Part shown: positions 2,678 to 49,270 of the stretch, piece by piece
Layout: each line of letters starts with the position of its first letter
How positions within the stretch are numbered: position 1 is the stretch's first letter
Origin: Planctomycetota bacterium
Lineage (GTDB): Bacteria; Planctomycetota; PLA2; JAEUHO01
DNA: 64,000 nt
Assembly: GCA_020851795.1 (NCBI GenBank)
Contig: JADZCA010000029.1
Coordinates: 49,271-113,270, forward strand
Reading direction: 5' to 3'
Translations under genes and position numbers: made by a program
The notes under the pieces: generated by a model
What the model was told of the DNA's origin: nothing
What the model saw: only the letters and a program-made list of their open reading frames with translations
The model's database searches: none

Positions 2678-2687
2678 GGGGGGCACG

Positions 2688-18725: not shown

Positions 18726-18941
18726 TCAGCCGGTCTCGTCGTCCCCGCGCGACCTCCACGCCAGCACGATCGCGACGGCGACGACGTTGGCCGCCACGGG
18801 CACCAGGTCGGCGGCCACCGCGCGCCACTCGAGCGACCGCCCCGCGAGCCCGCGTGCACCCACCGCGACGACGACCGCGACGAGCACGCCGACGATCAAC
18901 GCGAGCCCCAGCCGACGCACGAGCCGCGGCCGCGACCTCAC
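18726..18941 (-). CDS. Possible small two-TM membrane protein (71 aa), GTG start overlapping upstream stop as GTGA
   Basis: Translation 'VRSRPRLVRRLGLALIVGVLVAVVVAVGARGLAGRSLEWRAVAADLVPVAANVVAVAIVLAWRSRGDDETG' has two hydrophobic helices. The GTGA junction with gene 18938..19930 suggests coupling. Confidence 0.35.
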   Translation of the reverse strand: MRSRPRLVRRLGLALIVGVLVAVVVAVGARGLAGRSLEWRAVAADLVPVAANVVAVAIVLAWRSRGDDETG

Positions 18942-20056: not shown

Positions 20057-21298
20057 ATGGGCCGTCGTCTCGTGCTGCTCGCGTCGCTCTCGTTCACCGG
20101 GGGTCTCCCCGCGCTCGCCGACGTCGTCACGACCAGGGACGGGCTCGTCCTCGAGGGCACCGTCGAGCGCACCCCCGACGGCGGCGTGCGCGTGCGCACC
20201 GACGACGGCGACGTGCAGCTCTCCGCCGACGCGGTCGCGTCGGTCGCGCCGGGCGACGGCCCCCGCACCGAGGCCCGGCGCAGCCTCGCCACGCTGCCCG
20301 CGTCGGACGTGACCGGGCGCTACCGCGTGGCGGTGGCCGCGCAGGCCCGCGGCCTCGACGACGTCGCGCGCGACGCCTACGCCTCCGTCCTCGCGGCCGA
20401 GCCCGACCACCCCGCGGCGCGCCGCGCCCTCGGCTACGAGCGCGTGGACGGCCGGTGGATGACGACGGCGCAGGCCCGTGCGGCCGGCGGGCTCGTGCTC
20501 TACGAAGGCCGGTGGATGCTCCCGACCGAGGTGGACCTCGCGCTGCGCGGGCGGCGTCGGCAGGTCACCGTGCGGGCGACCGACCTCGTCACCGCGGCCA
20601 AGACCGCCGCGACGGGCGCCCCGGCGCTCGCCGCCGCCGCGGAGCGCAAGGTGCTCGCGGCCCCGCGCGGGGAGCGGCTCGAGACCGCGACGGGTCTCCT
20701 CGTCCACTCCGACGCGAAGGTGCGGACCTGGGCGGCGCGCGAGCTCGGGCGGCTCGTCGACGAGAGCGCGATGCGCCCGCTCTTCGCCGTCGCGGCCCGC
20801 GACCGCGACGAGGGCGTGCGTCACGCGGCGGTCGCGGCGCTGGCCGCCTACGGGCGCGACGACGTGGCGCTGCCCTTCGTGCGCGCGCTGTGGTCGGAGC
20901 ACCCGTCGGTGACCGCGCACGCCGCGCAGGCGCTCGCCTGGCTCGGCGACCCGCGCGCGGTCGTCTACGTCGTCAAGCGTGTCACGAGCCACGGCGGCTC
21001 GCCGCGCGCGAACTTCTCGACGATGTCGCAGCGTGCCTACGTGCAGGACTTCGACGTCGAGGTCGCGCAGACCTCCTACATCGCCGACCCGCAGATCGGC
21101 GTCGTCCAGGAGGGCGCCGTGCAGGACGTGCAGGTGCTCGACGCCTCGATCGAGACGACGTGGGTCGAGACCGTGCTCGTGCGCAGCGTCGCCTCGCTCG
21201 CCAAGGTCGAGCTCGCCGACCGCGCGGGGCTCGCCGCGTGGTGGAAGGAGAACGAGGCCCGCTTCCCCGGGTTCCCCCCCGTCGCCGCCCACCGCTAG
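20057..21298 (+). CDS. Secreted HEAT-repeat (PBS-lyase-like) protein
   Basis: Signal peptide 'RRLVLLASLSFTGGLPALA'. HEAT-like units 'AKVRTWAARELGRLVDESAMRPLFAVAARDRDEGVRHAAVAALAAYGRDD...HPSVTAHAAQALAWLGDPRAV'. Confidence 0.6.
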   Translation: MGRRLVLLASLSFTGGLPALADVVTTRDGLVLEGTVERTPDGGVRVRTDDGDVQLSADAVASVAPGDGPRTEARRSLATLPASDVTGRYRVAVAAQARGLDDVARDAYASVLAAEPDHPAARRALGYERVDGRWMTTAQARAAGGLVLYEGRWMLPTEVDLALRGRRRQVTVRATDLVTAAKTAATGAPALAAAAERKVLAAPRGERLETATGLLVHSDAKVRTWAARELGRLVDESAMRPLFAVAARDRDEGVRHAAVAALAAYGRDDVALPFVRALWSEHPSVTAHAAQALAWLGDPRAVVYVVKRVTSHGGSPRANFSTMSQRAYVQDFDVEVAQTSYIADPQIGVVQEGAVQDVQVLDASIETTWVETVLVRSVASLAKVELADRAGLAAWWKENEARFPGFPPVAAHR

Positions 21299-21778
21299 AT
21301 TGCGTCGCGCGCTGCGTTGAGGAGGGTGCGCCCGCGCTCGCTGAGGCCCGGGCCCCTCGGTCGCCCCGCGCTGCGCCGGCTCGCGCGGTGCGTGACGGGA
21401 CCCCGATCGTGTCTCGTCACCCCTCGGGGAATGCGGTCGTCGGGGCGCAGCGCCCCTCCGACCCTCCTCTCCGGCTCTCGCGCGCTGCGCTGGCTCGCGC
21501 GCTCGTGCCCGGCCCGACGGGCCGGGCACCGCCTCCGTAAGGTCGCAGACTCCTCGTCGTCGGGCCGCGGCTCGGCGTACGGCGGTGCGAGTACGCGGTC
21601 GCCGCGGCCGCTCCCGCGGGCCTGAGCGAATCGCGGGCGGCGCGAGAGGGTCACCCCCCGCGTCGAATTCGAACCCAAAGCGTCGAACGCACGTCAGGCC
21701 CCGGTCGGGGCTCGCGGATCCGACCCGCGCGGCCGGACGGCGGTCGGGGGCCCGCGGGACGGCCCGTACGATGACGGG

Positions 21779-23821
21779 ATGCCCGCCGCGTTCCTGCCGA
21801 CCACCGCCGACGAGATCCGCGCGCTCGGCTGGGAGCGCCCCGACGTCGTCCTCGTGTCCGGCGACGCGTACGTGGACCACCCGTCGTTCGCGGCGGCGGT
21901 GATCGGCCGCGTGCTCGAGGCGCGCGGGTGGAAGGTCGCCGTGCTCCCGCAGCCCGACTGGCGCAGCGCCGACGCGTGGCGCGCGCTCGGGCGGCCCCGG
22001 CTCTTCTGGGCCGTGAGCGCCGGGAACATGGACTCGATGATCAACCACTACACGGCGAACCGGAAGCGCCGCAACGACGACGCGTACTCGCCCGGCGGCC
22101 GCATCGGGCTGCGCCCGGACCGCCCCACCGCGATCTACGCGCAGCGGTGCCGCGAGGCGTTCCCGGGCGTGCCGGTGGTGCTCGGCGGCGTCGAGGCGTC
22201 GCTGCGCCGCATCGCGCACTTCGACTACTGGAGCGAGACCGTCCGGCCGTCGATGCTGGTCTCGAGCAAGGCCGACCTGCTCGTCTACGGCATGGGCGAG
22301 AAGCCGGTCGTCGAGATCGCACGGCGCCTCGACGCGGGCGAGCCGGTGACGGCGCTGCGCGACCTGCGCGGCGTCGCCTACCTGCTCGGGCGCACCGAGG
22401 CGCTCGCCGAGCACCGCTTCCCCGGCGCGAGCAACGACCCGCGCACCGTCGAGCTGCCCTCGCTCGAGGAGGTCTCCTCCGACCCGCGCGCGTTCGCGCG
22501 GATGACCGCGCTGCACCACCACGAGACGAGCCCGCTCAACGCGCGCCGCGTCGTGCAGCGCCACGGCGACCGGCTCCTCGTGCAGAACCCGCCGACCCTC
22601 CCGCTCACCGAGGCGGAGATGGACGCGGTGTACGACCTCCCCTACGCGCGCCGCCCGCACCCGCGCTACGCCGAGCCCGTGCCCGCGTTCGAGATGATCA
22701 AGGACTCTGTGACGATCATGCGCGGGTGCTTCGGCGGCTGCACGTTCTGCAGCATCACGATGCACCAGGGGCGCATCATCCAGAGCCGCAGCCCCGAGTC
22801 GGTGGTGCGCGAGGTCGAGCGCATCGCGAAGGACCCGGCGTTCCGCGGCACGATCAGCGACGTCGGCGGGCCGACGGCGAACATGTACCGCATGCGCTGC
22901 ACGAAGCCCGAGGTCGAGGCCAAGTGCCGGCGCCTCTCGTGCATCCACCCCGTCGTGTGCCCGCTGCTCGGGACCGACCACGGGCCCACGGTGGACCTGC
23001 TGCGCCGCACGCGCGCGGTGCCGGGCGTCAAGCGCGTGCACGTCGCCTCCGGCATCCGCATGGACCTCGCGGCGAAGGACGACGCCTACCTCGACGAGCT
23101 CGTGCGCCACCACGTCGGCGGCCACCTCAAGGTCGCGCCCGAGCACGTCAGCGACACCGTGCTCGAGAAGATGAAGAAGCCGCCGCAGGCGACCTTCGAG
23201 ACGTTCTCGGAGCGCTTCGCCGCGGCGAGCCGCCGCGCGGGCCGCGAGCAGTACCTCGTCCCCTACTTCATCGCCGGCCACCCGGGCTCGGGGGTCGCCG
23301 AGATGATCGAGCTCGCCGAGTTCCTGCGCCGCACCGGCTACCGTCCGCGGCAGGTGCAGGACTTCATCCCCGCGCCGATGGACATCGCGACGTGCATGTG
23401 GCACACGGGCCTCGACCCGTTCACGATGGAGCCCGTCACGTCGGCCAAGCGCCTGCGCGACCGCGTCGTGCAGCGCGCGCTGATGCAGTTCTTCGACCCC
23501 AAGCACTGGTTCACCGTGCGGCGCGCCTTGCTCGACGCAGGCCGCGGCGACCTGATCGGCGACGGGCCGCGCTGCCTGATCCCGTCGCACCCGCCCCCCG
23601 AGGCGCTCGAGGCGCGTCGTGCCGCGGCCGAGGCGGCGGCGCGCCGCGGGACGGCCGCGGAGGCGCGGGCACGGCTCGAGGGCGACGCCGACGAGGACCC
23701 GACGGGGGGCGAGGACGGCGGCGACGAGACCTACGTCCACGCGCAGGACGCGGGCACGTCCCCCACCGTCGGCTACCGTCCGGGTCGGCCCGGCGCCCGC
23801 CGCCGTCGCCCCGGCCGCTGA
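21779..23821 (+). CDS. ygiQ: YgiQ-family radical SAM protein (UPF0313)
   Basis: N-terminal '[39 protein letters not shown]' and radical-SAM core '[20 protein letters not shown]' are characteristic of YgiQ. Low-complexity C-terminal tail. Confidence 0.9.
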
Positions 23822-23916
23822 CGCACGCCGGACGGCAGGCCACGCCTCCACCCGGGCGGGCCGTGGGCGCTCCGGTTGTGCTTGCAGGCGCTGGGGGCCG
23901 GGCGTAGCAGGGAGGC

Positions 23917-26640
23917 ATGGCCGTCGCGCACCCCGCGTGGCACGCCCTCCCCGCCGCGGAGGCGGCGTCGCGCCTCGGGGTCCCGCCGGCCGTCGGGCTC
24001 TCGACGGCCGAGGCCTCGCTGCGGGCCGCGCGCCACGGGCCCAACGCGCTCCCCGAGCCCCGGTCGCGCTCGCGGGTCGCGATCTTCCTCGCGCAGGTGC
24101 GCAGCCCGCTCATCTACCTGCTGCTGGTCGCCGCCGCGGTGGCGGCCGCGATGGACGAGACGACCGACGCCGTCGTCATCGTCGCCGTGGTGCTCCTCAA
24201 CGCCGCCGTCGGTGCGTTCCAGGAGGGTCGCGCCGAGCGCAGCCTCGCGGCGCTGCGCCGGCTGGTCGTCGTGCGCACGCGCGTGCGGCGCGACGGCGCC
24301 GAGCGCGAGCTCGACGCGCGCGAGCTGGTCCCGGGCGACGTCCTCGTGCTCTCCACCGGCGACCGCGTGGGCGCCGACGCGCGCCTGCTCGAGGCCGAGG
24401 GCCTGCGCGCCGCCGAGGCCGCGCTGACCGGCGAGTCGCAGCCGGTGGACAAGGACCCCGCGCCGCTGCCCGAGACGACCGACCTCGCCGAGCGCCGCAA
24501 CATGGCCTACGCGGGGACGCACGTCACCGCCGGCCGCGGCACCGCGCTCGTGGTCGCCACGGGGCTCGGGACCGAGCTGGGCCGCATCGCCGCCTTGACC
24601 GCGGCGGCGGAGGAGCCGCCCACGCCGCTGGCGCGCCGCATCGACCGATTCAGCCGCTTCCTCCTCGTCGTCGCCGCGGTGCTGCTCGCCGTCGTGGTCG
24701 GCGGCGGCCTGCTGCGCGGGGTCGCGCTCGGCGACATCGTGCTCGTCGGCATCAGCCAGGTCGTCTCGCTGGTGCCCGAGGGGCTGCCCGTCGCGCTCAC
24801 GATCGCGCTCGCGGTCGGCGTGCGGCGCATGAGCCTGCGCGGCGCGATCGTGCGGCGCCTCTCCGCGGTCGAGACGCTGGGCTCGGTGACGACGATCTGC
24901 ACCGACAAGACCGGCACGCTGACGCGCAACGAGATGACGGTGGTCGAGGTGCGCCGGCCCGGCGCGGCGACCGTGGCGGTCGAGGGCCGCGGGTACGCGC
25001 CCGAGGGTCGCTTCGTCGTGGACGGCGCGCCGACGGACCCGCTCGCCGACGCCGACCTGCGCGCGCTGCTCGAGGCGTTCGCGCTGTGCAACGACGCGGT
25101 GCTCTCGCGCGATCCCGACGACCCGGCGCGCTGGCACGCGGTGGGCGACCCCACCGAGGCCGCCCTCGTCACGCTCGCCGAGAAGGCGGGGCTCGACGTG
25201 GCTGCGCTGCGCCGCGCCCGCCCGCGCACGGCCGAGGTGGCCTTCGACTCGACGACGCGGCGCATGGCGACGGCGCACGCGGGCGACGGCGGGCCCTGCG
25301 TGGTCGTCAAGGGCGCCCCCGACGCGGTGCTCGCGCTGTGCGGCGCGCTCCGCCGCGACGGTCGCGACGCGCCGCTCGACGACGCGGCTGCCCGCGACGT
25401 CCTCGCCGCGGTGGACGCGATGGCCGCGCGCGCGCTGCGCGTGCTCGCCGTCGCGCGCGTCGCCGACGCGACGCTCGCCGGTGGCGTCGCGCCGCTGCGG
25501 GGCCGCGGCGTGCTGCTCGGGCTCGTCGGCCAGATCGACCCGCCGCGCGCCGAGGTCGCGGCCGCGGTCGCCGAGTGCCGCACGGCGCGCGTGCGCCCGG
25601 TCATGGTGACCGGCGACCAGCTGGCGACGGGCGTCGCGGTCGCGCGCGAGATCGGGCTCGTGGACGGCCACGCGACCGCGCGGACGGGCGCCGACCTCGA
25701 CGCCGCGGGCCCCGCGGGGCTGGCCGCGGAGACGGCGCGCGTCGGCGTGTGGGCCCGCGTGCGGCCCGAGCAGAAGCTCCGCATCGTCGAGGCGCTGCAG
25801 GCGCGCGGCGAGGTCGTCGCGATGACCGGCGACGGCGTCAACGACGCCCCGGCGCTCGCGCGCGCCGACGTCGGCGTCGCGATGGGCCTCTCGGGGACCG
25901 AGGCGGCGCGCGAGGCGAGCAAGGTCGTCGTGACCGACGACAACTTCGCGACGATCGTCGCGGCCGTGCGCGAGGGGCGCATCGTCGGGCGCAACCTCCG
26001 CAAGGCGATCCTGCTGCAGCTCTCGACCTCGGTGGCCGAGGTGCTGATCCTGCTCGGCGCGCTGTTCCTGGGCTTCCCCGTGCCCTTCACGGCCGCGCAG
26101 ATCCTGTGGAACAACGTCGTGACCGAGACGGTCATCACGGTGAACCTCGTGCTCGAGCCCGCCGAGGGCGACGAGATGCGGACGGCCCCGCCGCCCGTGG
26201 ACGAGCCGCTGCTCCCCGGCTTCTCGCTGCTCCGGGCCGCGCTGATGGCGCTGGTGATCGCCGGGTCGGTGCTCGGCTTCTACGCGTGGCACCTCTCGCG
26301 CGACCTCCCCTTCGCGCAGACGCAGACCGCGACGTTCACGGTGCTCGCGGTGTGCGAGTGGGCCAACGTCCTCAACGTGCGCTCCGCGCGGCGCTCGGGC
26401 CTCGACCGCTCGATCTTCCTCAACCCGTGGCTCGTCGGCGGGCTCGTGGTCGCCAACCTCCTGCAGGCGGCGGTGGTCTTCGTGCCGGCGCTCAACGCCG
26501 TGTTCCGCACGACGCCGATCCCGTGGGGCGAGGTCGTCGCGATCGGGCTGGCGGGCAGCGTGGTCCTGTGGGTCGAGGAGGCCCGCAAGGCGGGCGCGCG
26601 GTGGCGGGACCGCCGGGCCGCGACGGGAGGTGCGACGTGA
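23917..26640 (+). CDS. P-type cation-transporting ATPase (type II, Ca2+/Mg2+-like)
   Basis: 'ICTDKTGTLTRNEM' phosphorylation motif, 'MTGDGVNDAPALARADVGVAMG' hinge motif, N-terminal Cation_ATPase_N-like segment; 907 aa. Confidence 0.9.
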   Translation: MAVAHPAWHALPAAEAASRLGVPPAVGLSTAEASLRAARHGPNALPEPRSRSRVAIFLAQVRSPLIYLLLVAAAVAAAMDETTDAVVIVAVVLLNAAVGAFQEGRAERSLAALRRLVVVRTRVRRDGAERELDARELVPGDVLVLSTGDRVGADARLLEAEGLRAAEAALTGESQPVDKDPAPLPETTDLAERRNMAYAGTHVTAGRGTALVVATGLGTELGRIAALTAAAEEPPTPLARRIDRFSRFLLVVAAVLLAVVVGGGLLRGVALGDIVLVGISQVVSLVPEGLPVALTIALAVGVRRMSLRGAIVRRLSAVETLGSVTTICTDKTGTLTRNEMTVVEVRRPGAATVAVEGRGYAPEGRFVVDGAPTDPLADADLRALLEAFALCNDAVLSRDPDDPARWHAVGDPTEAALVTLAEKAGLDVAALRRARPRTAEVAFDSTTRRMATAHAGDGGPCVVVKGAPDAVLALCGALRRDGRDAPLDDAAARDVLAAVDAMAARALRVLAVARVADATLAGGVAPLRGRGVLLGLVGQIDPPRAEVAAAVAECRTARVRPVMVTGDQLATGVAVAREIGLVDGHATARTGADLDAAGPAGLAAETARVGVWARVRPEQKLRIVEALQARGEVVAMTGDGVNDAPALARADVGVAMGLSGTEAAREASKVVVTDDNFATIVAAVREGRIVGRNLRKAILLQLSTSVAEVLILLGALFLGFPVPFTAAQILWNNVVTETVITVNLVLEPAEGDEMRTAPPPVDEPLLPGFSLLRAALMALVIAGSVLGFYAWHLSRDLPFAQTQTATFTVLAVCEWANVLNVRSARRSGLDRSIFLNPWLVGGLVVANLLQAAVVFVPALNAVFRTTPIPWGEVVAIGLAGSVVLWVEEARKAGARWRDRRAATGGAT

Positions 26641-27473
26641 CCGAAGGCCACGACGGACCGCGGCTCGACGCGCTGACGCCGCCGGAGATGGCCGAGCGCG
26701 CCGAAGCGGTGGGCGTCGCCAAGGCCTCGCTCCCGACGAGCACGACGTTCGTGCTCGCGGTGCTCGCGGGCGCCTTCATCGCGCTCGGCGGGATGTTCTC
26801 GCAGGCCGTCGCGGCGGGCGGGCCGGGCTCGCTGCCGTGGGGCGTGTGGCGGCTCGTCGTCGGGACGGCGTTCTCCCTCGGGCTCGTGCTCGTCGTGGTG
26901 GGCGGGGCCGAGCTCTTCACGGGCAACGTCCTGCTCGTGATGGCGTGGTCGTCGGGCCGGCTGCGGGCGGGGGCGGTGCTGCGCAACTGGGCGGTGGTCC
27001 TCCTCGGGAACGCGGTCGGGGCGCTGGGCACGGCGGCCCTCGCCGTCGCGGCGGGGCACCACCGCCTCGGCGCGGGCGCCGTGGGCGCGGCGGCGCTCGC
27101 GGCCGCGGAGGCGAAGTGCGACCTCCCCTTCGTGCGCGCGTTCGCGCTCGGGGTGCTCTGCAACACCCTCGTGTGCCTCGCGGTGTGGCTCAACATGAGC
27201 GCACGCACGGCGGCGGACCGCGTGCTCGTGACGATCCCGCCGATCGCCGCCTTCGTCACGTGCGGCTTCGAGCACAGCGTCGCCAACCTCTACCTCGTGC
27301 CGGTGGCGCTCCTCGCGCGCGACGTCGGCGGCCTCGACGCCGCCGCCGCCCCGCACCTCGCGTGGGACCGCTTCCTCGTGGGCAACCTCCTCCCCGTGAC
27401 GCTGGGCAACGTCGTCGGGGGCGCGGTGCTCGTGGGCGCCGTCTACGCGTTCGTCTACCTCCGACGCCGCTGA
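26637..27473 (+). CDS. Formate/nitrite transporter (FNT family) channel, GTG start overlapping ATPase stop (GTGA)
   Basis: 'FVLAVLAGAFIALGGMFS...GAELFTGNVLL...LLGNAVGALG...CGFEHSVANLYLVP' are FocA/NirC-type motifs. Listed in the track as the tail of a 1284-aa shadow ORF. Confidence 0.8.
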   Translation: MTEGHDGPRLDALTPPEMAERAEAVGVAKASLPTSTTFVLAVLAGAFIALGGMFSQAVAAGGPGSLPWGVWRLVVGTAFSLGLVLVVVGGAELFTGNVLLVMAWSSGRLRAGAVLRNWAVVLLGNAVGALGTAALAVAAGHHRLGAGAVGAAALAAAEAKCDLPFVRAFALGVLCNTLVCLAVWLNMSARTAADRVLVTIPPIAAFVTCGFEHSVANLYLVPVALLARDVGGLDAAAAPHLAWDRFLVGNLLPVTLGNVVGGAVLVGAVYAFVYLRRR

Positions 27474-27669
27474 ACGTCCGGCGCCGACGAGCCGCCGGAC
27501 GTCCCCGGCCGGCGCCCGGCCCGCCCGCGGCGGGCCGGGCCCCCTTCGTCCCCGAAGGCGGTCGGCTCGGTCACCCGCACAGGCGGCGCCCGCCGCGCGC
27601 TCTTTCGCGGACCCGGAACGCTCGCGCGCGGGAGCGTGCTCGTGCCGACGAGGCCTGCGGCGGTCGTCG

Positions 27670-28641
27670 CTATCCCTTCCACCACTCGACGCCGGCGGCG
27701 GAGACGGCCTTCCCCGCCTCGAGCAGCGCGCGGCGACGCTCGGGGTCGAGCGGCTTGGCTTCCGCCGCGACCCGCGCGGCGACGTCGACCTCCTCGGGCG
27801 TGGCGCAGCCGACCGCCGCGGTGGAGATGTCGAGGCCGTAGGCGAAGCGCAGGCAGTCCTCCGCCGGGAGCGCCGAGGGGCCCGCCAGCGCGCGTCCGGC
27901 GGCGAACACCTTCATCGCCACGCGCGCCACGCCCGCCGTGACGGCCGCGGGCAGCGTGCCGTCCACGAAGGACTGCTTGTGCACGTCCACCGGGCTCAGC
28001 GGCATGAGGATCGAGTCCCACGACCAGCGCTCGAGCGCGGCCTTCATCACGGCCGGGTCGCGGTGGCCCGTGACGCCCACGAAGCGCACGAGCCCCTCCT
28101 CCTTCGCGCGCAGGATCGCCGCGAGCGGGCCCCGGTCGGAGAGGATGCGGTCGAGCTCGGCGGCGTCGCGCACGCAGTGAACCTGCAGCAGGTCCACGTG
28201 GTCGGTCTTCAGGCGCGTCAGGCTCTGCTCGAGCTCGCGCCGCGCCGCGGTGCCGTCGCGCTCGAGCGTCTTCGTCGCGAGGAAGACGCGGTCGCGGCGG
28301 CCGGCGAGCGCGAGCCCGACGCGCCGCTCCGAGAGCCCGCGGACGTAGGAGGGCGCGGTGTCGAAGTACGTGCAGCCGCGCTCGAGGGCGCGCGCGACGA
28401 TGGCGACGCCGGCGTCGTCGTCGGCCGCCGCACCGACGTAGAAGCAGCCGAGCCCGAACACCGTCACCGTGCGCCCCGTGCGCCCGAACGGGCGCGTGGG
28501 CAGCGCGGGGGCGGGCGCCGGCGCAGGATCGGCGCGCAAGACCCGCGGCACCGCGAACGACGCCCCGACGCCGACGGCGGCCGACAGGACGTTCCGACGC
28601 GTGATCGCCGCGTCAGGGCGGGCGGGCGTGGGGTCGGGCAC
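27670..28641 (-). CDS. Aldo/keto reductase with twin-arginine (Tat) signal peptide
   Basis: 'ITRRNVLSAAVGVGASFAVP' Tat motif. 'TYFDTAPSYVRGLSERRVGLAL...DRVFLATK...DHVDLLQVHC' are AKR catalytic motifs. Confidence 0.85.
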   Translation of the reverse strand: MPDPTPARPDAAITRRNVLSAAVGVGASFAVPRVLRADPAPAPAPALPTRPFGRTGRTVTVFGLGCFYVGAAADDDAGVAIVARALERGCTYFDTAPSYVRGLSERRVGLALAGRRDRVFLATKTLERDGTAARRELEQSLTRLKTDHVDLLQVHCVRDAAELDRILSDRGPLAAILRAKEEGLVRFVGVTGHRDPAVMKAALERWSWDSILMPLSPVDVHKQSFVDGTLPAAVTAGVARVAMKVFAAGRALAGPSALPAEDCLRFAYGLDISTAAVGCATPEEVDVAARVAAEAKPLDPERRRALLEAGKAVSAAGVEWWKG

Positions 28642-28908: not shown

Positions 28909-29034
28909 CTAGGGAAACGTGCCGTGGAGACGGCGGCGACGGTTGACGATCTTGCGCCCGTTCTTGGTCTTCATGCGAGCGCGGAAGCCGACGCGGCGGC
29001 GCTTCGTCTTCGAGTTGCGGACGTGGAGCCTCAT
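28909..29034 (-). CDS. rpmH: 50S ribosomal protein L34
   Basis: 'MRLHVRNSKTKRRRVGFRARMKTKNGRKIVNRRRRLHGTFP' matches the L34 core HGFRARM.TKNGR.V...RR.KGR. 41 aa. The C-terminus is atypical and no rnpA follows. Confidence 0.7.
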   Translation of the reverse strand: MRLHVRNSKTKRRRVGFRARMKTKNGRKIVNRRRRLHGTFP

Positions 29035-29231: not shown

Positions 29232-29828
29232 ATGGCGCCCATGGACGCAGGACGCTGCCGCTCGTGCGGACGGCCGTTCACCTCCGGCGAGGTGACCGGC
29301 GTGGGCATCCTGCGTCCGCGCCCGGCGACGGCCGGCGGTCCGTTCGTCGAGTTCGCCTGCCCGGGCTGCAAGACGGTGCTGCGCCTCGTGCCACACGGCC
29401 AAGGTCGCTACGGCGTGCCCGGCGCGCCGCCGCCACCTCCCCCGAGCGAAGACGCGCGCCGCGTCCCTTGGACGCGGGCCACGACCGGCACCGCCGAGCG
29501 CGAGGCGCCCGCGGCGCGGCCCGCGCCGCCCCCGCGCGCCGCCCGCGCGCACGACGAAGGGCCGGCCCCCGAGCCGGAACGCGCGCCGCCGCCGCGCCGC
29601 GAGGGCGCGGCGCCGACCGAGGAGGACCCGAAGGACGCGCTGGCCGCGCTCCGCGTGCTGGGCGTGCGCGAGACCGCGACGATCGCCGAGATCGAGAGCG
29701 CGTACCGCGACCTCGCGCTGCGCTGCCATCCCGACAAGGTCGCGCACCTCGACCCCGACTTCGTCGCGCTCGCCGAGCGCAAGTTCCGTCGTCTGCAGGC
29801 CGCGCGCGACCTGCTGCTCGGGTCCTGA
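29232..29828 (+). CDS. J-domain (DnaJ-like) protein with N-terminal MJ0042-type zinc ribbon
   Basis: 'CRSCGRPFTS...FACPGCKTVLRL' is CxxC...CxxC. C-terminal 'IAEIESAYRDLALRCHPDKVAHLDPDFVALAERKFRRLQAARDLL' is a J domain with HPD. Pro-rich linker. Confidence 0.65.
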   Translation: MAPMDAGRCRSCGRPFTSGEVTGVGILRPRPATAGGPFVEFACPGCKTVLRLVPHGQGRYGVPGAPPPPPPSEDARRVPWTRATTGTAEREAPAARPAPPPRAARAHDEGPAPEPERAPPPRREGAAPTEEDPKDALAALRVLGVRETATIAEIESAYRDLALRCHPDKVAHLDPDFVALAERKFRRLQAARDLLLGS

Positions 29829-29830
29829 CC

Positions 29831-31660
29831 ATGGACGCGATGCGCGTCGAGCGCTGCGGCGGATGCGGGGCCCGCTACAACGTGACGCGGCTCGCGCCGG
29901 GCTCGCGCTTCGCGTGCCGCCGCTGCGGCGGGGTCGTCGTCGTCAGCGTGACGCCGGACGCGTCGTCGCCGCCGCGCACGCCGCGCGCGCCGTTCGTCGT
30001 CGGCGGCCTGCTGCTCCTCGTCGCGGCGGTGGCGCGCTCGTGGCCGGGCGTCGTCGCCGGCGCGCCCGACGACCCGTGGGGCCGCGTCGTGCTCGGGCTC
30101 CCGCTCGTGGACGCGACCTCGCTCGCCTGGCTCGCGCTCACCGGCGGCCTCGCGCTCGCCGCCGCGGCGCCCGCCGCGGGACGCGGCCTGCACGGCGTGC
30201 TCGCCGTCGCCGCGCTGACGATGTTCCTGCGCTCGCACGCCCCCGACGGCGCGATGTTCCTGCTGCGGGCCCCCGCGCCGCTCGCGGGTGCGGCGCTCGC
30301 CGCGCTCGGCGCGGGCGCGCTCCTGCTCGGCGCCTCGGCGCCGACGGCCCGCGGCACGGCCCGCCCGTTCGTGCTCGGCGGTGCGCTCGCCTTCGTCGCG
30401 GCGCTCGCGACGACGCCGGGCGCGCACGGCGCGTCGTCGCTCGCGGCGCGGGCCGACGACGTGGTCGCCTGGCTCGTCGCCGTGTGGCGGGGCGACGAGG
30501 GACGCGACGCGGGGTCCGCGTGGCCCCACGCGCTGCCCGACACGCTGGTCGCGCTCGGCGCGCTCGCGGCCGGGCTCGCGGTCCTGTGGCCCGGGCGCCG
30601 GACCGGCGGCGTGTCGCGCACGGCGGGGCGGCTCGCCTACGCGGCGTTCCTCGTCGCGCTCGCCGCGCCGGGGCTCGCCGACGCGTGGGCCGTGCGTGAC
30701 CGGTGGCTCGCCGGCGACGGCGCGTCCGTCGTCGCCGCGCAGGTCGCGGCGACCGCGCTCGACCGCGGGCTCGCGCCGTGGCTCGTGCTCTCGGCGCTGG
30801 CCGCGACCGCGGCGCTCCCGCGGGGCGGCACGCCGCGCGGCACCGCCTCCACGGGGCTCGCGCACCTCGCGGTGGCCGGCGCGGCCGCGGCCCTGCTCGT
30901 CGCGGCGCGAGGCGCGGGGTCCGCGACGCTCGACGCCGTGCACGCGCTCGCCGCCGACGTCGCCCGGGCGCCGGCGACCGCGCAGCACACGGCCCTGCTC
31001 GTCGCCGGCGGCGCGGCGCTGCTGCTCGCGACGGTGCGCCCGCTGCGCCGTCGCGGCGGGCCCGCCTTCGGCGTGCTCGCGCTCGCGCTGGCGGCCACCG
31101 ACCTCGGCGTGCCCAGCGTCGGCGTGCCGCGGGCCGCGTGGGCCGTGCTCGTCGCGGCGGTCGGCGGTGCGATGGTGGCCCGGCGCGGCGCGCGCTGGGA
31201 CGGACGCGGGCGCGTCCCCGTGCTCGTCGCGGCCGGCACGCTCGTCGCGCTGCTCGCGTTCCCCGTCCACGGTCCCGAGGCCGAGGGCGGCGCGTACACG
31301 TCGGCGCTCTCGGCGCTCGTCGCCGCGTGCACGCCGACCGACGCCACGACGTCGTGGTGGACCGTCGCCCTCGACCCCGACGTCGCGCTCCCCGCGTGCG
31401 CGGCGGTCGCCGTGGCGGCCGCGCTCCTCGCGTCCGCGACCGGCCCGCGCACGCCCCTCGTCGGCCTCGCCGTGCTGGCCGCGGTCGTCGCCGCCGTGCA
31501 CGGCCCCGTGGCCGCGGCGGTGGGCGCCGCGGGCCCCGCGCCGACCCCGTGGGACGCGCTGCTCGCCGCCGCGGCGCACGCCGTCGGGGCGACCGCGGTC
31601 CCGGCCGCCCTCGGCGCCCTCGCGGCGTCGGGCGACGCCGTGGGCGGCCGGCCCGGCTGA
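29831..31660 (+). CDS. Zinc-ribbon (MJ0042-like) polytopic membrane protein (610 aa)
   Basis: 'MDAMRVERCGGCGARYNVTRLAPGSRFACRRCGGVVVV' followed by more than 10 hydrophobic segments. ATG is 2 nt after the J-protein stop. Same frame as the track's 813-aa ORF. Confidence 0.55.
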   Translation: MDAMRVERCGGCGARYNVTRLAPGSRFACRRCGGVVVVSVTPDASSPPRTPRAPFVVGGLLLLVAAVARSWPGVVAGAPDDPWGRVVLGLPLVDATSLAWLALTGGLALAAAAPAAGRGLHGVLAVAALTMFLRSHAPDGAMFLLRAPAPLAGAALAALGAGALLLGASAPTARGTARPFVLGGALAFVAALATTPGAHGASSLAARADDVVAWLVAVWRGDEGRDAGSAWPHALPDTLVALGALAAGLAVLWPGRRTGGVSRTAGRLAYAAFLVALAAPGLADAWAVRDRWLAGDGASVVAAQVAATALDRGLAPWLVLSALAATAALPRGGTPRGTASTGLAHLAVAGAAAALLVAARGAGSATLDAVHALAADVARAPATAQHTALLVAGGAALLLATVRPLRRRGGPAFGVLALALAATDLGVPSVGVPRAAWAVLVAAVGGAMVARRGARWDGRGRVPVLVAAGTLVALLAFPVHGPEAEGGAYTSALSALVAACTPTDATTSWWTVALDPDVALPACAAVAVAAALLASATGPRTPLVGLAVLAAVVAAVHGPVAAAVGAAGPAPTPWDALLAAAAHAVGATAVPAALGALAASGDAVGGRPG

Positions 31661-31745
31661 CCGGTCGCCAGATCCAGCGAACCCTCCACGCGGTCGGGCA
31701 CGTTTCAATGAAGGCCGGATCGGCACGCCCCCCGCTGGAGCCCTC

Positions 31746-33470
31746 GTGATCGTCCTGCGCATCGACGTCCGCGGTCACAGCGCCGACGTGCGGTGGTCGG
31801 GCGCCGAAGCCGTCGTCGGCGCCGGCGAGCGGGCGGCGATCCAGCGCGACGACGCCGGCTGGGCCCCTCGCGAAGCGGTCTTGATCCACCGGGGCGACGA
31901 GGTGCTGCTCGTGCCCGCCGACGGGCGCGACCCGGTCCGCCTGCGCGTCGGCGACTCGACCCGCCTCGGCGCGGCGACGCTCACGCTCGTCGGGCTCGTG
32001 CCGCTGCCGCCCGAGGCCGACGACGAGGAGGCGCCGACGCCCGTCGCGCGGGCCCGCACCGACCTCCCGACGCCGACGCCGGCCTTCGCGCTCGAGCCCG
32101 ACCCCCGCGCCGTGCCCGCGACGAGCGGCACGGCCGCCGCGAGCGCCGCGTCGGGCCCCGCCCCCGTGACGACGCCGTCTCCCGCCGGCGGCGCGGCGCC
32201 CGTCCCGCCGCGCACGCTGCGCCCGTCGAGCTTCGAGGACGAGCTCCTCAGCGTGCTGCGCCGCTCGCCGTGGTGGGCGATCTCCGTCGCCGTCCACGCC
32301 CTCGTGATCGTGGCGCTGATGCTGTTCGTGCCCGAACGGCCGCTGCGCGACCTGCGCCTGCCGACCTACGGGCTCGTCCACGCGACCGACCCCAACGAGG
32401 ACCCGCTGCTGTCGGGCGGCGTCGAGGACCCCGAGCCCACGGTCGAGGAGCCCGAGGAGCGGACGGCGCCCGAGCCCGAGCCCCTGCCGCCCACCGAGCG
32501 CGACCTCGAGCCCCTCCCCGACGTCTCGTCCCGCGACACGACGCCGGCGCCGATCGACCCGCCGCCGGAGGAGGACACGGCGCCGCCGGTCGTGCTCGTC
32601 GGCCCCTCGGGCGCGGCCCCGTCGCTGCGCGTCGCGCCGAAGAACGCGCTGTCGAAGCCGACGTCGAAGAACGACCTCGACGGCCTCAACGCCGACGAAC
32701 AGCGCGCGCTCGAGGTCAACCGGCAGGCGGCCGCGCGCGTGCGCGACGCGATCGAGCGCGGCGGCGGCGCGCTGGGCAAGGTGCTCAAGGGGCTGCGCTC
32801 GAGCGACGTGCTCGTCGTGCGCGGCACCTTCGACCACATGGAGACCGTGCTCGAGGAGCTCGGCGTCCCGTTCGTGCTGCGGGCGCCGTCCGAGGTCGCC
32901 GCCGAGGGCGGGCTCTCGCGCCACAAGGTCGTCTTCTGGAACTGCGGCGAGAACGTGCTCGCCCCCCACCTGCAGACCCGCGCCGTCGAGGCCGTGCGCG
33001 CGTTCGTGCGCGACGGCGGCTACTTGTTCACCACCGACTGGGCGCTCGCCAACCTCGTCATCCCCGCGTTCCCGGGCTTCCTCGCCACCGAGGGCCGCAT
33101 CCGCCCGCTCCCCGAGCTCATCGTCACGGTCGTCGCGCCGGCCGCGGCGCAGGGCCACGCCCTGCTCGACGGCGTGCTCGAGGAGGACGCGCCGCCGCGC
33201 TGGTGGCTCGAGTCGGCCTCGTTCGACGTGAAGGTGCTCAAGCGCGACGCGGTGGAGGTGCTGCTCGAGGCGCCCGCGCTGGAGCGCCCGCCGCTCCTCC
33301 GCAGCCCGGTCGTCGCGGCGACGTTCAGCTACGGGCGCGGGCGCGTGCTGCACGTGATGGGGCACTACTACCAGCAGAAGGGCAACCTCGCGGGCGCGGT
33401 CGGCGCCCAGCGCCTGCCGCTCAACTTCGTGCGCCTGCGGGTCGAGCAGGACAAGACGCCGACGCGCTGA
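31746..33470 (+). CDS. FHA-like domain membrane protein with C-terminal putative class-I amidotransferase/ThuA-like domain
   Basis: GGAG RBS 6 nt before the GTG. N-terminus 'VLRIDVRGHSADVRW...EAVLIHRGDEVLLVPADG...RLRVGDSTRLG' is FHA-like. TM 'WWAISVAVHALVIVALMLFV'. C-terminus 'HKVVFWNCGENVLAPHL...VRDGGYLFTTDWALANL...RVLHVMGHY'. Confidence 0.55.
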   Translation: MIVLRIDVRGHSADVRWSGAEAVVGAGERAAIQRDDAGWAPREAVLIHRGDEVLLVPADGRDPVRLRVGDSTRLGAATLTLVGLVPLPPEADDEEAPTPVARARTDLPTPTPAFALEPDPRAVPATSGTAAASAASGPAPVTTPSPAGGAAPVPPRTLRPSSFEDELLSVLRRSPWWAISVAVHALVIVALMLFVPERPLRDLRLPTYGLVHATDPNEDPLLSGGVEDPEPTVEEPEERTAPEPEPLPPTERDLEPLPDVSSRDTTPAPIDPPPEEDTAPPVVLVGPSGAAPSLRVAPKNALSKPTSKNDLDGLNADEQRALEVNRQAAARVRDAIERGGGALGKVLKGLRSSDVLVVRGTFDHMETVLEELGVPFVLRAPSEVAAEGGLSRHKVVFWNCGENVLAPHLQTRAVEAVRAFVRDGGYLFTTDWALANLVIPAFPGFLATEGRIRPLPELIVTVVAPAAAQGHALLDGVLEEDAPPRWWLESASFDVKVLKRDAVEVLLEAPALERPPLLRSPVVAATFSYGRGRVLHVMGHYYQQKGNLAGAVGAQRLPLNFVRLRVEQDKTPTR

Positions 33471-33505: not shown

Positions 33506-34402
33506 GTGGACCCCAAGGCCGTCGTCGAGCTCGTCCGTCCCTTCACCATGCTGGCCCCCGCGGTGGGCGTGCTCTGCGGCGCCGGCGCCGCCGCGGCGCG
33601 CACGGGCACGCGCTTCGACCCCGGCCTCGTCGGGCTCGCGATCGCCGCCGCCGTGCTCGCCAACGGCGCGAGCAACGCGTGGAACCAGGCGTTCGACGCC
33701 GACATCGACCGCGTGAACAAGCCGCAGCGCCCGGTCCCGTCGGGCCGCGCGACGGTGCGCGGCGCGCTGCGCCTCGGTCACCTCTGCGCCGTCGGCGGGC
33801 TCGCGGTCGCGGCGCTGCACGCGCTCCTCGTCGGCCACCCGGCCTTCCTCGCGTGCGTCCTCGTGGGCGTCGTCGCGACGTGGGCGTACAGCGCACCGCC
33901 GCTGCGCACGAAGGCGCGCCTGTGGCTCGCCAACCCCACGATCGCGCTGCCGCGCGGCTTCCTCGTCCCCGTGGCCGGGTGGTCCGTGCTCGCGTGGCCG
34001 GGGACGCCCGAGCCGTTCGCGCTCGGGCTCGTGCCGGGGCTCTTCGTGCTCGGCGCCGCCACGACCAAGGACTTCGCCGACGTGGACGGCGACCGCGCGC
34101 ACGGCTGCCGGACGCTGCCCGTCGTGCTCGGGGCCGAGCGCGCGGCGCGGGTCGTCGCACCGTTCCTCGTCGCGCCGTTCGTGCTCTACCCGTTGCTCTC
34201 GCTCGCGGGCCTGCTCGCGCGGCCCTTCGTCGCGTGGGCGGCCGTCGGGACGCTGCTCGGCGCCGGCGGGGCGTGGACGGCGCGCGCGCTGCTCGCCGAC
34301 CCGCGCTCGCTCGCGACCGAGCGCAACCACCCGGCGTGGCGCGGGATGTACCTGCTGATGGTCGCCAACCAGCTCGCGGTGCTCGCCGTCTACGCGCTCT
34401 GA
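33506..34402 (+). CDS. UbiA-family prenyltransferase
   Basis: 'ELVRPFTMLAPAVGVLCGA' N-terminal helix. 'NAWNQAFDADIDRVNKPQRPVPSG' Asp-rich motif (NxxxDxxxD). Second motif 'KDFADVDGDRAHG'. 8-9 TM segments. Confidence 0.75.
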   Translation: MDPKAVVELVRPFTMLAPAVGVLCGAGAAAARTGTRFDPGLVGLAIAAAVLANGASNAWNQAFDADIDRVNKPQRPVPSGRATVRGALRLGHLCAVGGLAVAALHALLVGHPAFLACVLVGVVATWAYSAPPLRTKARLWLANPTIALPRGFLVPVAGWSVLAWPGTPEPFALGLVPGLFVLGAATTKDFADVDGDRAHGCRTLPVVLGAERAARVVAPFLVAPFVLYPLLSLAGLLARPFVAWAAVGTLLGAGGAWTARALLADPRSLATERNHPAWRGMYLLMVANQLAVLAVYAL

Positions 34403-39953: not shown

Positions 39954-40808
39954 CTACGAGACCCCCCAACGCTCAAGGATCGCGTCGAGCTGCGTGCTGT
40001 CGGCGTAGTCCACCTCGATGGTGCCCCCACGGCCCCGGCCTCGCACGCGGACCGACGCCCCGAGCGCCCGGCGAATCCGGTCCTCGATGTCCTTGAGGAA
40101 CGGGTCTGCCGCCTTCCCCGCCTTGCGCTTCGCGCCGGGCGCAAGCTGCGCGAGGCGCTCGATGTCACGCACGGACCACTGCTTCTCGATCGTCCAGGTC
40201 GCCACTTGGCTGCGCTTGGCGTCCGTCGGGAACTGGAGGATCGCCTTCGCCTGGCTCGCGGAGAGCCGCCCGTCCTCCAGGGCGAGCCTCACGTCCTCGG
40301 GGAGCTCGAGCAGGCGCAGCAGGTTGGCGACGGTCGCACGGTCCTTCCCCACGCGCTCCGCGACGCCCTCCTGCGTCAGCCCCTGCGTGTCCATCATGGC
40401 CTTCAGCGCACGCGCCTTCTCCAGCGCGTTCAGGTCGGCCCGCTGGAGGTTCTCCACGATCGCGAGCGTCTGCATGCCGGCGTCGTCCACGTCGCGCACG
40501 ACGGCGCGGATCCGGCTCCAGCCGAGCGCGCGGCACGCCCGCAGGCGGCGCTCGCCCGCGACCACCTCGTAGCCCCCCAAGGGCCCGCGGCGCACGACAA
40601 TGGGTTGCAGGAGGCCGTGCGCGGCGATGGAGGCCCGCAACTCCTCGAGGGCGTCCGGGTCGAAGACGCGCCGAGGCTGGTAGGGGTTGGCGCGGATCTC
40701 CTGCACCGGGAGCTCGTCGGCCGCCCGCGCCTCCTCGGCGCTCGGCTCGGCCACGGTGCTCTGGATCAGACCGCCGAGTCCACGGCCCAGACGTCGAGGT
40801 TGGTTCAT
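39954..40808 (-). CDS. parB: Chromosome partitioning protein ParB (Spo0J)
   Basis: Start 'MNQPRRLGRGLGGLI'. CTP-binding 'VVAGERRLRACRALG'. HTH 'QEGVAERVGKDRATVANLLRLLELP'. C-terminal dimerisation segment. The track ORF has a 47-aa spurious N-terminal extension. Confidence 0.9.
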   Translation of the reverse strand: MNQPRRLGRGLGGLIQSTVAEPSAEEARAADELPVQEIRANPYQPRRVFDPDALEELRASIAAHGLLQPIVVRRGPLGGYEVVAGERRLRACRALGWSRIRAVVRDVDDAGMQTLAIVENLQRADLNALEKARALKAMMDTQGLTQEGVAERVGKDRATVANLLRLLELPEDVRLALEDGRLSASQAKAILQFPTDAKRSQVATWTIEKQWSVRDIERLAQLAPGAKRKAGKAADPFLKDIEDRIRRALGASVRVRGRGRGGTIEVDYADSTQLDAILERWGVS

Positions 40809-40857
40809 GGGGGGGCTCCTTCGCGACCACCCCAAGATAGGCGATCCCGGCGACAGG

Positions 40858-40873
40858 TGTTCCCCGTGGAACA
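40858..40873. promoter_or_regulatory. parS-like site TGTTCCCCGTGGAACA (1 mismatch to TGTTCCACGTGGAACA)
   Basis: Read directly, 50 bp upstream of the parB start codon. Confidence 0.6.
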
Positions 40874-40902
40874 TCGATGGCCCGGGCGGCTCGGCCGCGC
40901 GA

Positions 40903-49208: not shown

Positions 49209-49270
49209 GGACGGGCCATCCTACGCGCCCCGCAGGCGCCCCGGGCGCCCGACCGGCCCGCGGCCGCGCG

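Follow-up and report, generated by a model that had tools for sequence, protein, structure and literature searches.

A planctomycete gene cluster joining a putative TonB-like anchored protein with a GATase1-like domain to a UbiA-family prenyltransferase gene

The cluster and its genomic setting

The window analysed here is a stretch of 64,000 nucleotides from a Planctomycetota MAG, not from the Myxococcota in which an earlier note on this DNA had placed it. It covers a replication-origin region, with dnaA, dnaN, gyrB, parB and rpmH. Beside rpmH lie four genes on the forward strand, here called g1 to g4, of which the earlier note had described the first three.

28909-29034, reverse strand: rpmH (ribosomal protein L34, from the ORF translation), divergent from g1
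29232-29828, forward strand: g1, 198 aa, ribbon and J-domain protein
29831-31660, forward strand: g2, 609 aa, polytopic membrane protein
31746-33470, forward strand: g3, 574 aa, FHA-fold, TM helix and GATase1-like protein
33506-34402, forward strand: g4, 298 aa, UbiA family

Start scans gave the models of g1, g2 and g3 and left 2 nt between g1 and g2 and 85 nt between g2 and g3; GC3 is 0.9-1.0 in the proposed frames. All three are real genes, and their orthologues keep this order at 17 separate loci in Planctomycetota. In these loci the gaps or overlaps are small (4 nt of overlap between g1 and g2 in L001) and g1 lies upstream of g2 and g3. The earlier observation of three consecutive co-directional genes separated by 2-85 nt is thus confirmed, and the interpretation built upon it is, as a whole, partly supported. 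The fourth co-directional gene, g4, begins 35 nt after g3. An Rfam search and a promoter and terminator scan of this 77% GC DNA were empty or uninformative, and PADLOC anti-phage defence models matched none of the proteins of g1 to g4, nor the protein encoded at 18938-19930.

In all close relatives rpmH forms the upstream border of the cluster; PF00468 genes, with local L34 profile matches, lie there in L001 to L006. Throughout the close set the 12-kb neighbourhood from rpmH to the PPIase and ParB genes is preserved whole, opposite-strand genes included, so the linkage of g1, g2 and g3 could be inherited order. Across the 17 loci that keep the order, g3 is only 33-56% identical, the UbiA gene is inverted and the upstream genes differ. 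Conservation of the three genes together holds for these 17 loci but fails further out: in distant relatives the g1 orthologue is about 6-7 kb from g3, g2 was not detected, neither is next to g3, and MurJ, XdhC and TPR genes lie upstream of the g3-like genes in place of g1 and g2.

The ribbon proteins g1 and g2

29256-29369, forward strand: zinc ribbon of g1 (C9, C12, C43 and C46)
29655-29816, forward strand: C-terminal J domain of g1 (aa 142-195, PF00226)
29855-29926, forward strand: N-terminal CxxC…CxxC ribbon of g2 (C9, C12, C29 and C32)

The g1 product is soluble, with no TM helix. The arrangement proposed for it earlier, a CxxC...CxxC ribbon, a Pro-rich linker and a J domain with HPD, was borne out in every part. 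PF00226 scored 41.2 bits, above the Pfam gathering cut-off of 27.8, and the HPD tripeptide (CHPDKV) at residues 166-168 is kept in all orthologues, which also share the motifs CxxC…GILR…GGP.vEF.CPGC and CHPDKVAHLD. The best NCBIfam match was the J region of DjlA, at 34.2 bits against a cut-off of 162, and the full-length DnaJ_bact model was likewise below threshold (29.9 bits; cut-off 377). Like DjlA, the membrane-anchored type III J protein of E. coli, g1 has a C-terminal J domain with HPD, but it carries an N-terminal Cys4 ribbon in place of the TM helix and scores far below the DjlA cut-off. Recruitment of DnaK to the membrane is the role attributed to DjlA. The 64-kb window and the surroundings of g3 in the loci examined yielded no gene for DnaK or for a Ser/Thr kinase, and a Ser/Thr kinase gene lies nearby in some g3-family loci of other phyla. 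Apparent DnaK and GrpE neighbours in Vulcanimicrobiota loci were rejected, as they are GGDEF, Ser/Thr kinase, NT5C and nucleotidyl transferase genes.

After its ribbon, g2 has about 12-14 hydrophobic segments on the Kyte-Doolittle scale. The earlier description of an MJ0042-like ribbon on a domain of ten or more TM helices stands as to the ribbon and the membrane segments, but the MJ0042 identity lacks HMM support: the models TIGR02098 and PF13717-19 gave no NCBIfam match at E<=0.1, though CxxC…CxxC is present, and the L002 orthologue reached Zn_ribbon_4 at E=0.094. The protein matched no Pfam or NCBIfam family. Nine orthologues gave nothing above noise in Pfam, with weak and non-recurrent matches to PigN and TgpA_N, and a profile search of the PDB returned chance-level matches (E of 0.08 or worse). 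Four homologues were found in databases. Only four of 18 orthologues have the ribbon, and polar residues are conserved almost nowhere. In most relatives g2 is split into two translationally coupled genes, g2a and g2b, which overlap by 4 nt in L002, L004, L005 and L006.

Architecture of g3

31746-32009, forward strand: FHA-fold domain, cytoplasmic (residues 1-88)
32232-32327, forward strand: juxtamembrane segment and TM helix (residues 163-194; RRSPWWAISVAVH, with P175, S180 and H184)
32328-32660, forward strand: disordered tether, presumed periplasmic (residues 195-305)
32661-33470, forward strand: C-terminal alpha/beta domain with a class-I-GATase-like fold (residues 306-574 and stop)

A structure match of the g3 model identified an FHA beta-sandwich at the N-terminus. 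The earlier note had called this an FHA-like phosphothreonine-binding domain; the fold is there, but the contact residues are gone. Where OdhI and canonical relatives have GR and SxxH, g3 has GA and A-P-R-E, and it lacks the NG loop; the FHA module of g3 is not a phosphothreonine binder. All close orthologues likewise have other residues in place of the GR arginine and the SxxH serine and histidine, and they too have lost the NG loop with its contact Asn. PF00498 did not match g3 at E<=0.1; distant g3 relatives retain the canonical residues and match it at E=5.5e-12, and nine of 26 family members match Yop-YscD_cpl (PF16697), a degenerate FHA model. The cytoplasmic domain of YscD and PrgH is also an FHA fold without the phosphothreonine residues, placed just before a single inner-membrane TM helix, as in g3. 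In YscD, however, ring-building domains follow in the periplasm and the protein is part of an injectisome, whereas the g3 locus has no secretion genes.

The TM helix noted earlier in g3 is present, and it carries a TonB-like signature that had been overlooked. Its S180 and H184 align with S16 and H20 of TonB. This S-x3-H pattern is found in 103 of 105 family representatives, and the P, S and H are invariant across 45 aligned TM segments of the family. Along the TM helix and the Pro-rich stretch the g3 family profile matches E. coli TonB (9ddo_F) at E=0.059, and among 9294 ORF translations the TonB TM segment was the best match to the TM profile outside the family, at 9.0 bits. As a profile of the short TM motif found no matches in the PDB, the link to TonB rests on the family-profile match, the S-x3-H count and the TM-profile ranking, and the likeness of the helix to that of TonB is weak. 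Lys and Arg together average 2.44 on the N side of the helix and 1.56 on the C side. The tether that follows is 23% Pro and 21% Asp plus Glu. Its pLDDT is below 50 at residues 202-229, 251-267 and 269-305 and about 61-67 at residues 231-250; the median linker length in the family is about 104 residues.

TonB and TolA span the membrane once with the N-terminus inside, carry S-x3-H on their TM helix and have a periplasmic spacer rich in Pro, a layout that g3 probably shares. It differs from them in having no TonB_C (PF03544 did not match) or TolA C-terminal domain, a GATase1-like fold taking that position, and in its extra N-terminal FHA fold. It differs also in the absence of exbBD or tolQR nearby. 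Pfam scans of candidate ORFs found none of ExbB, ExbD, TolQ or TolR in the 64-kb window or in 61 loci; motif searches for ExbD/TolR and ExbB/TolQ signatures, a weak negative, found none either. A further parallel is GltG of the Myxococcus xanthus Agl-Glt gliding machinery (PMC11761067), in which one or more FHA domains are followed by a TM helix that binds the TolQ/ExbB-like AglR, a disordered stretch in the periplasm and a globular C-terminus. Both proteins have a cytoplasmic FHA domain, one TM helix, a long disordered segment and a globular end. That end is a TonB-CTD-like domain in GltG and a GATase1-like domain in g3, which further differs in its degenerate FHA domain, its UbiA partner and the lack of agl or glt genes at the locus.

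For the C-terminal domain, the resemblance to class-I amidotransferases and ThuA-like proteins reported earlier holds at the level of fold, as structure matches of the model place it in the GATase1 alpha/beta fold, but not at the level of sequence family. Pfam, including PF00117, gave no match, and hhalign against the window's own PF00117 protein returned a probability of 0.56%. ThuA-like PF06283 and DUF4159 (PF13709) did not match g3 either; DUF4159 matched one of 26 relatives, at E=0.0075. The top structural neighbours include ThuA-like proteins, STM3548, IFT52, OST48 and a GH42 domain, all of them uncharacterised or with no known catalytic role, and MetA and true glutaminases also rank high. 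The motifs of the domain are VVV.G.FD, FWNC, GGYLFTTDW, WWLE and GRGRVLH..GHYYQ. Only the g3 family has the combination FWNC, TTDW, WWLE and VLH..GH, which sets it apart from the ThuA-like proteins, STM3548 (2gk3), a Planctomyces GATase1-like protein (3rht) and DUF4159.

This domain defines a family of 1920 clusters at 50% identity that match neither Pfam nor NCBIfam. In 180 representatives (clusters at 50% identity) D363, C400, D431, E489, H536 and H540 are conserved at 98-100%. They follow the beta strands of the model at residues 355-358, 395-398, 426-430, 485-488 and 532-537. Class I glutamine amidotransferases have a Cys at the nucleophile elbow, and a His-Glu pair besides. Judged by secondary-structure position in the model, the g3 elbow, between strand 426-430 and helix 433-441, would be occupied by the invariant Asp431, with Cys400 on the loop after strand 395-398 and H540 after the last core strand. 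The near-invariant D, C, D, E, H and H suggest an enzyme or metal site. Some family members have the domain fused to a GGCT-like one. It is repeatedly found together with FHA domains and with a membrane anchor of TonB type, and in seemingly cytoplasmic proteins as well. An exact look-up of the g3 sequence returned no record, and the literature searched for an architecture of FHA domain, TonB-like anchor and GATase-like domain held nothing relevant. The invariant polar residues of the domain had escaped the earlier note.

The g3-g4 pair and its possible role

The g4 protein matches PF01040 at 134 bits (cut-off 34.2), and both Asp-rich motifs, NQAFDADID and KDFADVDGD, are kept. It shares the UbiA superfamily and these two motifs with ChlG, BchG and DGGGP synthase, and among solved structures it comes nearest to chlorophyll a synthase (9sau, E=8e-23) and DGGGP synthase (6m31, E=3.6e-11). 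Unlike ChlG and BchG it stays below the equivalog cut-offs, with 131 bits against both NCBIfam models (cut-offs 313 and 212), and no photosynthesis genes were seen in the window.

The UbiA gene g4 is the most constant genomic partner of g3. It adjoins g3 in the close loci, and a UbiA gene lies directly downstream of a g3-like gene in nine others (L028, L030, L032, L037, L039, L041, L043, L045 and L061). The adjacency occurs in four flank contexts: g3-UbiA in the window and the close set; TPR-g3-DUF92-UbiA-4TM, with 4-nt overlaps; direct g3-UbiA in L039, L043 and L045; and L061, with a gap of 12 nt. A search of the literature on a DUF92-UbiA operon found nothing relevant. The small 4-TM gene that follows UbiA in distant loci was considered as a prenol kinase and dropped, having no Pfam support.

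We tentatively favour the view that g3 and g4 form the core of a conserved inner-membrane module in an uncultured Planctomycetota lineage, with g3 best read as an envelope-spanning adaptor or enzyme that would work with the prenyl-lipid enzyme. The g3 protein would be bitopic and N-in, built like TonB, TolA or GltG, and in this lineage its degenerate FHA fold may, like those of YscD and PrgH, serve for docking that does not depend on phosphorylation. The Pro/acidic tether of about 110 residues would be long enough to cross the periplasm. The head would then be periplasmic, and its near-invariant Asp, Cys, Asp, Glu, His and His would sit at the location of the glutaminase active site of true amidotransferases; in our reading it is probably a catalytic or metal-binding pocket and not a glutamine amidotransferase. 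As a ChlG/DGGGPS-like enzyme, g4 may make a prenylated membrane compound, and g3 could act on, escort or regulate this step across the membrane. The docking partner of the g3 TM face might be g4 itself or a proton motor of ExbB/TolQ type whose genes lie elsewhere. The operon of this lineage would have gained g1 and g2, g1 perhaps bringing DnaK to the complex and g2 acting as a poorly conserved polytopic scaffold. The analysis establishes the gene models, folds, conserved motifs and gene order; the topology, the catalytic role, the coupling to g4, the docking to a motor and the recruitment of Hsp70 are inferred. We count against this explanation that motor, DnaK and kinase genes were not found nearby, that TonB is matched only weakly (E=0.059, 9 bits), and that the domain has structural neighbours without a catalytic role and occurs in seemingly cytoplasmic proteins.

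How far the module extends is one point of doubt. The functional pair may be g3 and g4, with g1 and g2 adjacent merely through origin-proximal gene order and no complex between g1 or g2 and g3. The conserved rpmH-PPIase-ParB block with its opposite-strand genes, the presence of dnaA, dnaN, gyrB and parB within the window, and the MurJ, XdhC and TPR genes found upstream of distant g3-like genes, with g1 some kilobases away, all speak for such a division. We nevertheless hold it somewhat unlikely, as the gaps in the window are just 2 and 85 nt, g1 and g2 overlap by 4 nt in L001 and g2a and g2b do so elsewhere, and the order survives in 17 loci despite the divergence of g3, the UbiA inversion and the changed upstream genes. 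Similarly doubtful is a g3 whose S-x3-H face docks g4 or g2 and not an ExbB/TolQ/MotA-type motor, which would make it an accessory or regulatory prenyltransferase subunit that transduces no energy. In favour are the tight and often translationally coupled pairing of g3 with UbiA in several clades, the lack of motor genes near g3 in any locus examined, and the weak TonB similarity. TonB-family genes are, however, often unlinked to exbBD. Moreover, the N-in bitopic layout, the P-W…S-x3-H helix, the Pro/acidic tether and the globular head match TonB, TolA and GltG (PMC11761067).

The role of the head and the nature of its input also allow other readings. The C-terminal domain could be a non-catalytic binder or scaffold, comparable to the GIFT domains of GldG and IFT52, to OST48 or to the trimerisation domain of GH42, and what it holds in the periplasm might be a glycan, a partner protein or an intermediate linked to a lipid. 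Six near-invariant charged or nucleophilic residues over 180 clusters are unusual for a scaffold, and with the GGCT-like fusions in the family they lead us to regard this as unlikely. At the other extreme, the g3 family might be a new class of TonB-like transducer, in which an ExbB/TolQ-type proton motor pulls the S-x3-H anchor and so drives or switches a periplasmic Cys/Asp/His enzyme that processes the prenyl-lipid made by g4. FHA/phosphothreonine input would gate the motor, a task that the J protein and DnaK would have in this lineage. We rate this a long shot; if true, it would mean energy-coupled envelope lipid chemistry, not transport or motility. An interpretation along the lines of the earlier note, a phosphothreonine-dependent g3 that reads a kinase signal, an amidotransferase or ThuA-type enzyme and a J protein that recruits chaperones, seems to us very improbable. 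The FHA and GATase1-like folds are real, distant members have a canonical FHA, a Ser/Thr kinase lies near some loci of other phyla, and the J domain has its HPD. In g3 and all close orthologues, however, the contact residues are replaced and the NG loop is deleted, and the Pfam FHA model does not match g3; neither Pfam nor hhalign relates the head to class-I GATases by sequence, and by its position after strand 426-430 the elbow residue would be Asp431 and not Cys.

What our preferred reading, a g3-g4 core in the inner membrane, would mean depends on the coupling of the two proteins. The analysis defines a widespread domain, of roughly 1900 clusters at 50% identity, that matched none of the Pfam or NCBIfam models and whose Asp/Cys/Asp/Glu/His/His site is sharply conserved. 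In non-phototrophs the anchored form of the domain has a genetic link to a ChlG-like prenyltransferase. Were the coupling real, it would point to an unexplored route of regulated or energised envelope-lipid chemistry in Planctomycetota and would extend the TonB/TolA/GltG design to an enzyme-like head. Were it not, the cluster would still be a well-delimited target for Pfam curation and structural genomics.

One peripheral conserved neighbour had been linked to g3 through its C-terminal domain.

18938-19930, reverse strand: 330 aa protein with an N-terminal TM helix, a Pro-rich linker and a GATase1-like domain

The earlier note had suggested that the two C-terminal domains are paralogous. They share a fold, but pairwise alignment detected no sequence homology: BLASTP against g3 returned nothing, and hhalign gave a probability of 0.35%, or 13.9% with an 18-sequence profile. 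We place the two domains in the same fold superfamily only. In most relatives the gene lies one to two genes upstream of rpmH.

Gene layout and gene order at the origin

The G+C content of the window is 75-82%, so ORF lists for it are noisy. Frames were chosen by third-position GC, which lies at 0.9-1.0 in one frame per stretch, and starts were taken from start scans. This gave four co-directional genes with gaps of 2, 85 and 35 nt, while the neighbouring rpmH was read from its ORF translation.

28909-29034, minus strand: rpmH, divergent from g1
29232-29828, plus strand: g1, ribbon-J-domain gene
29831-31660, plus strand: g2, polytopic membrane gene
31746-33470, plus strand: g3, FHA-TM-GATase1-like gene
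33506-34402, plus strand: g4, UbiA prenyltransferase gene

The earlier note had described g1-g3 as co-directional with 2-85 nt spacing and omitted g4. Frames and start scans bear out that observation, and its interpretation stands only in part.

Every homologue of g3 is from an uncultured member of the Planctomycetota; the window, too, belongs to a 'Planctomycetes bacterium' MAG. In 17 distinct loci of close relatives rpmH (minus) is followed by g1, g2 in two halves (g2a, g2b) and g3 (plus), and beyond g3 by genes for UbiA, FGE-sulfatase, DUF2203, ACAD, PPIase and ParB. UbiA adjoins g3 in both orientations: it is co-directional in the window and in loci L001, L007 and L008, whereas the other close relatives have it turned round, converging on g3 and reading in the same direction as the FGE-sulfatase gene (L002 9871-10425, L004 9927-10877 and L006 10009-10899, all minus).

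Because dnaA, dnaN, a DciA-like gene (57653-58015) and gyrB are also present, at 54576-60639, the window is a chromosomal origin region; parB (39954-40874) lies about 14 kb from this group. Much of the conservation in the close set could thus be inherited gene order, and distant relatives were judged more informative.

In the window rpmH stands alone, and the gene that follows it is an aldo/keto reductase gene in place of rnpA. Several genes separate it from a minus-strand gene at 18938-19930, which encodes a membrane protein with a GATase1-like domain, both in the window (20057-28641: HEAT/TPR, YgiQ-type radical SAM, P-type ATPase, formate/nitrite transporter and aldo/keto reductase) and in the nearest relative, L001. 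Most other relatives (L002, L004 and L006 were compared) have no more than one gene between the two.

The J protein, the membrane protein and the anchor of g3

The g1 protein has a Cys4 ribbon (C9/C12…C43/C46), a Pro-rich linker and a C-terminal J domain with HPD, scoring 41.2 bits against a Pfam threshold of 27.8. By the NCBIfam equivalog models it is neither DnaJ nor DjlA; its orthologues keep the ribbon, with a GILR…GGP insert, and a CHPDKVAHLD motif. The g2 protein starts with a ribbon (C-x2-C-x16-C-x2-C), which only 4 of 18 orthologues keep; about 12-14 hydrophobic segments follow it. No HMM supports the label 'MJ0042-like' that had been given to the ribbon. In the window, as in the nearest relatives L001 and L008, g2 is a single ORF of 609 aa; all others have it as a pair of genes that overlap by 4 nt (e.g. 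L002 5728-7895, L004 5890-7829, L006 5932-7847), a difference due to gene fusion or fission. As it matched no family in Pfam, NCBIfam or PDB, has almost no conserved polar residues and is split or loses its ribbon in relatives, we read g2 as a probable scaffold-type membrane protein.

An AlphaFold2 model of g3, built on 26 homologues, contains a beta-sandwich (residues 1-88), a helix (163-194), an alpha/beta domain (310-570) and two disordered linkers. The earlier note saw a phosphothreonine-binding FHA-like domain in g3, but Pfam FHA did not match it, and in alignment with OdhI and canonical relatives GR has become GA, SxxH has become A-P-R-E and the NG loop is deleted. A degenerate YscD-type model matched 9 of the 26 family members, while more distant relatives retain a canonical FHA (PF00498, E=5.5e-12). 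As far as its motifs predict, the FHA module of g3 is not a phosphothreonine reader.

Among PDB sequences the top match of the g3 family profile was E. coli TonB (E=0.059), with the family's RSPW…S…H aligned to TonB RFPWPTLLSVCIH, that is to S16 and H20. P175, S180 and H184 are near-invariant in the family, and the TM S-x3-H was found in 103 of 105 representatives, one per 50%-identity cluster. With a TM-only profile the TonB helix was the best non-family match among 9294 ORF translations, at just 9 bits; in PDB that short profile matched nothing. The 111 residues after the TM are 23% Pro and 21% acidic, and the Lys/Arg bias favours a predicted N-in topology. TonB, TolA and GltG share this overall layout. 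Myxococcus GltG is built to the same plan as g3: it has an FHA domain, a TMH binding to the TolQ-like AglR, a disordered segment in the periplasm and a domain at its C-terminus (PMC11761067). No ExbB/D, TolQ/R, DnaK or kinase genes were found within the 64-kb window.

The C-terminal domain family

The C-terminal domain of the window's g3 had no significant match in Pfam or NCBIfam. Its profile, searched against 1.84 billion representatives, found 1920 clusters at E<=1e-3, of which 388 reached E<=1e-30. The domain occurs alone, after a canonical FHA and the S-x3-H TM, between a signal peptide and SH3 (P0096/P0098/P0110), fused to a GGCT-like (GGCT/AIG2-like) module, before a C-terminal canonical FHA, and after PBZ-like zinc fingers; P0166, P0119 and P0149/P0191 are further matches among the PBZ-like, GGCT/AIG2-like and C-terminal FHA fusions. 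The PBZ-like fingers are repeats of C-x5-C…H-x5-H, in a low-complexity, eukaryote-like protein.

Nine residues (D363, C400, D431, W432, W486, W487, E489, H536 and H540) are 97-100% conserved over 180 representatives, and the model places the conserved residues after core strands. By position in the model, D431 would occupy the nucleophilic Cys site of class-I amidotransferases and C400 would lie on the oxyanion-hole loop, while H540 follows the last core strand. From these positions we infer a new kind of pocket that would be catalytic or bind metal. In sequence the domain shows no relation to the true GATase encoded in the window. The suggested paralogy with the 18938-19930 protein was not borne out: BLASTP found no similarity, and hhalign gave a probability of 0.35% with the single sequence and 13.9% with an 18-member profile.

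The proposed prenyltransferase partner

In distant relatives, whose g3-like proteins have C-terminal domains 31-39% identical, MurJ, XdhC and a TPR protein are encoded upstream instead of g1 and g2; a ribbon-plus-J g1 orthologue lies about 6-7 kb off in three of these loci. UbiA directly follows the g3-like gene in L039, L043 and L045, is 12 nt from it in L061, and is separated from it by a DUF92 gene, with 4-nt overlaps, in L028, L030, L032, L037 and L041. The solved structures nearest to g4 are those of chlorophyll synthase (9sau, E=8e-23) and also DGGGP synthase, but g4 scores under both the ChlG and BchG cut-offs.

In our best reading g3 would span the envelope in the manner of TonB and GltG, carry an enzyme-like head of a new type and form a functional pair with a ChlG-like prenyltransferase; in the lineage of the window this pair would be joined by a J protein and by a polytopic membrane protein serving as scaffold. 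Defence-system, RNA and literature searches on the cluster gave no match.

In a sister clade (L037/L060 650-4575; L028, L030, L032, L041) a g3-like gene with a canonical FHA leads an operon of g3-like, DUF92, UbiA and small 4-TM protein genes, with 4-nt overlaps, that adjoins MurJ. DUF92 (PF01940) is the family to which VTE6 phytyl-phosphate kinase belongs.

Two other parts of the window were noted. Genes for a GT4 glycosyltransferase, a PIG-L deacetylase and a BshC-like protein stand in a row at 47308-50788 (minus), an arrangement that resembles the bshA-bshB-bshC set for bacillithiol biosynthesis, here in a planctomycete. At 1124-6053 (plus) a fragment of an ImuB-like Y-family polymerase, with IMS domains, precedes a polymerase alpha subunit of DnaE type, as in an apparent imuB-dnaE2 mutagenesis cassette.
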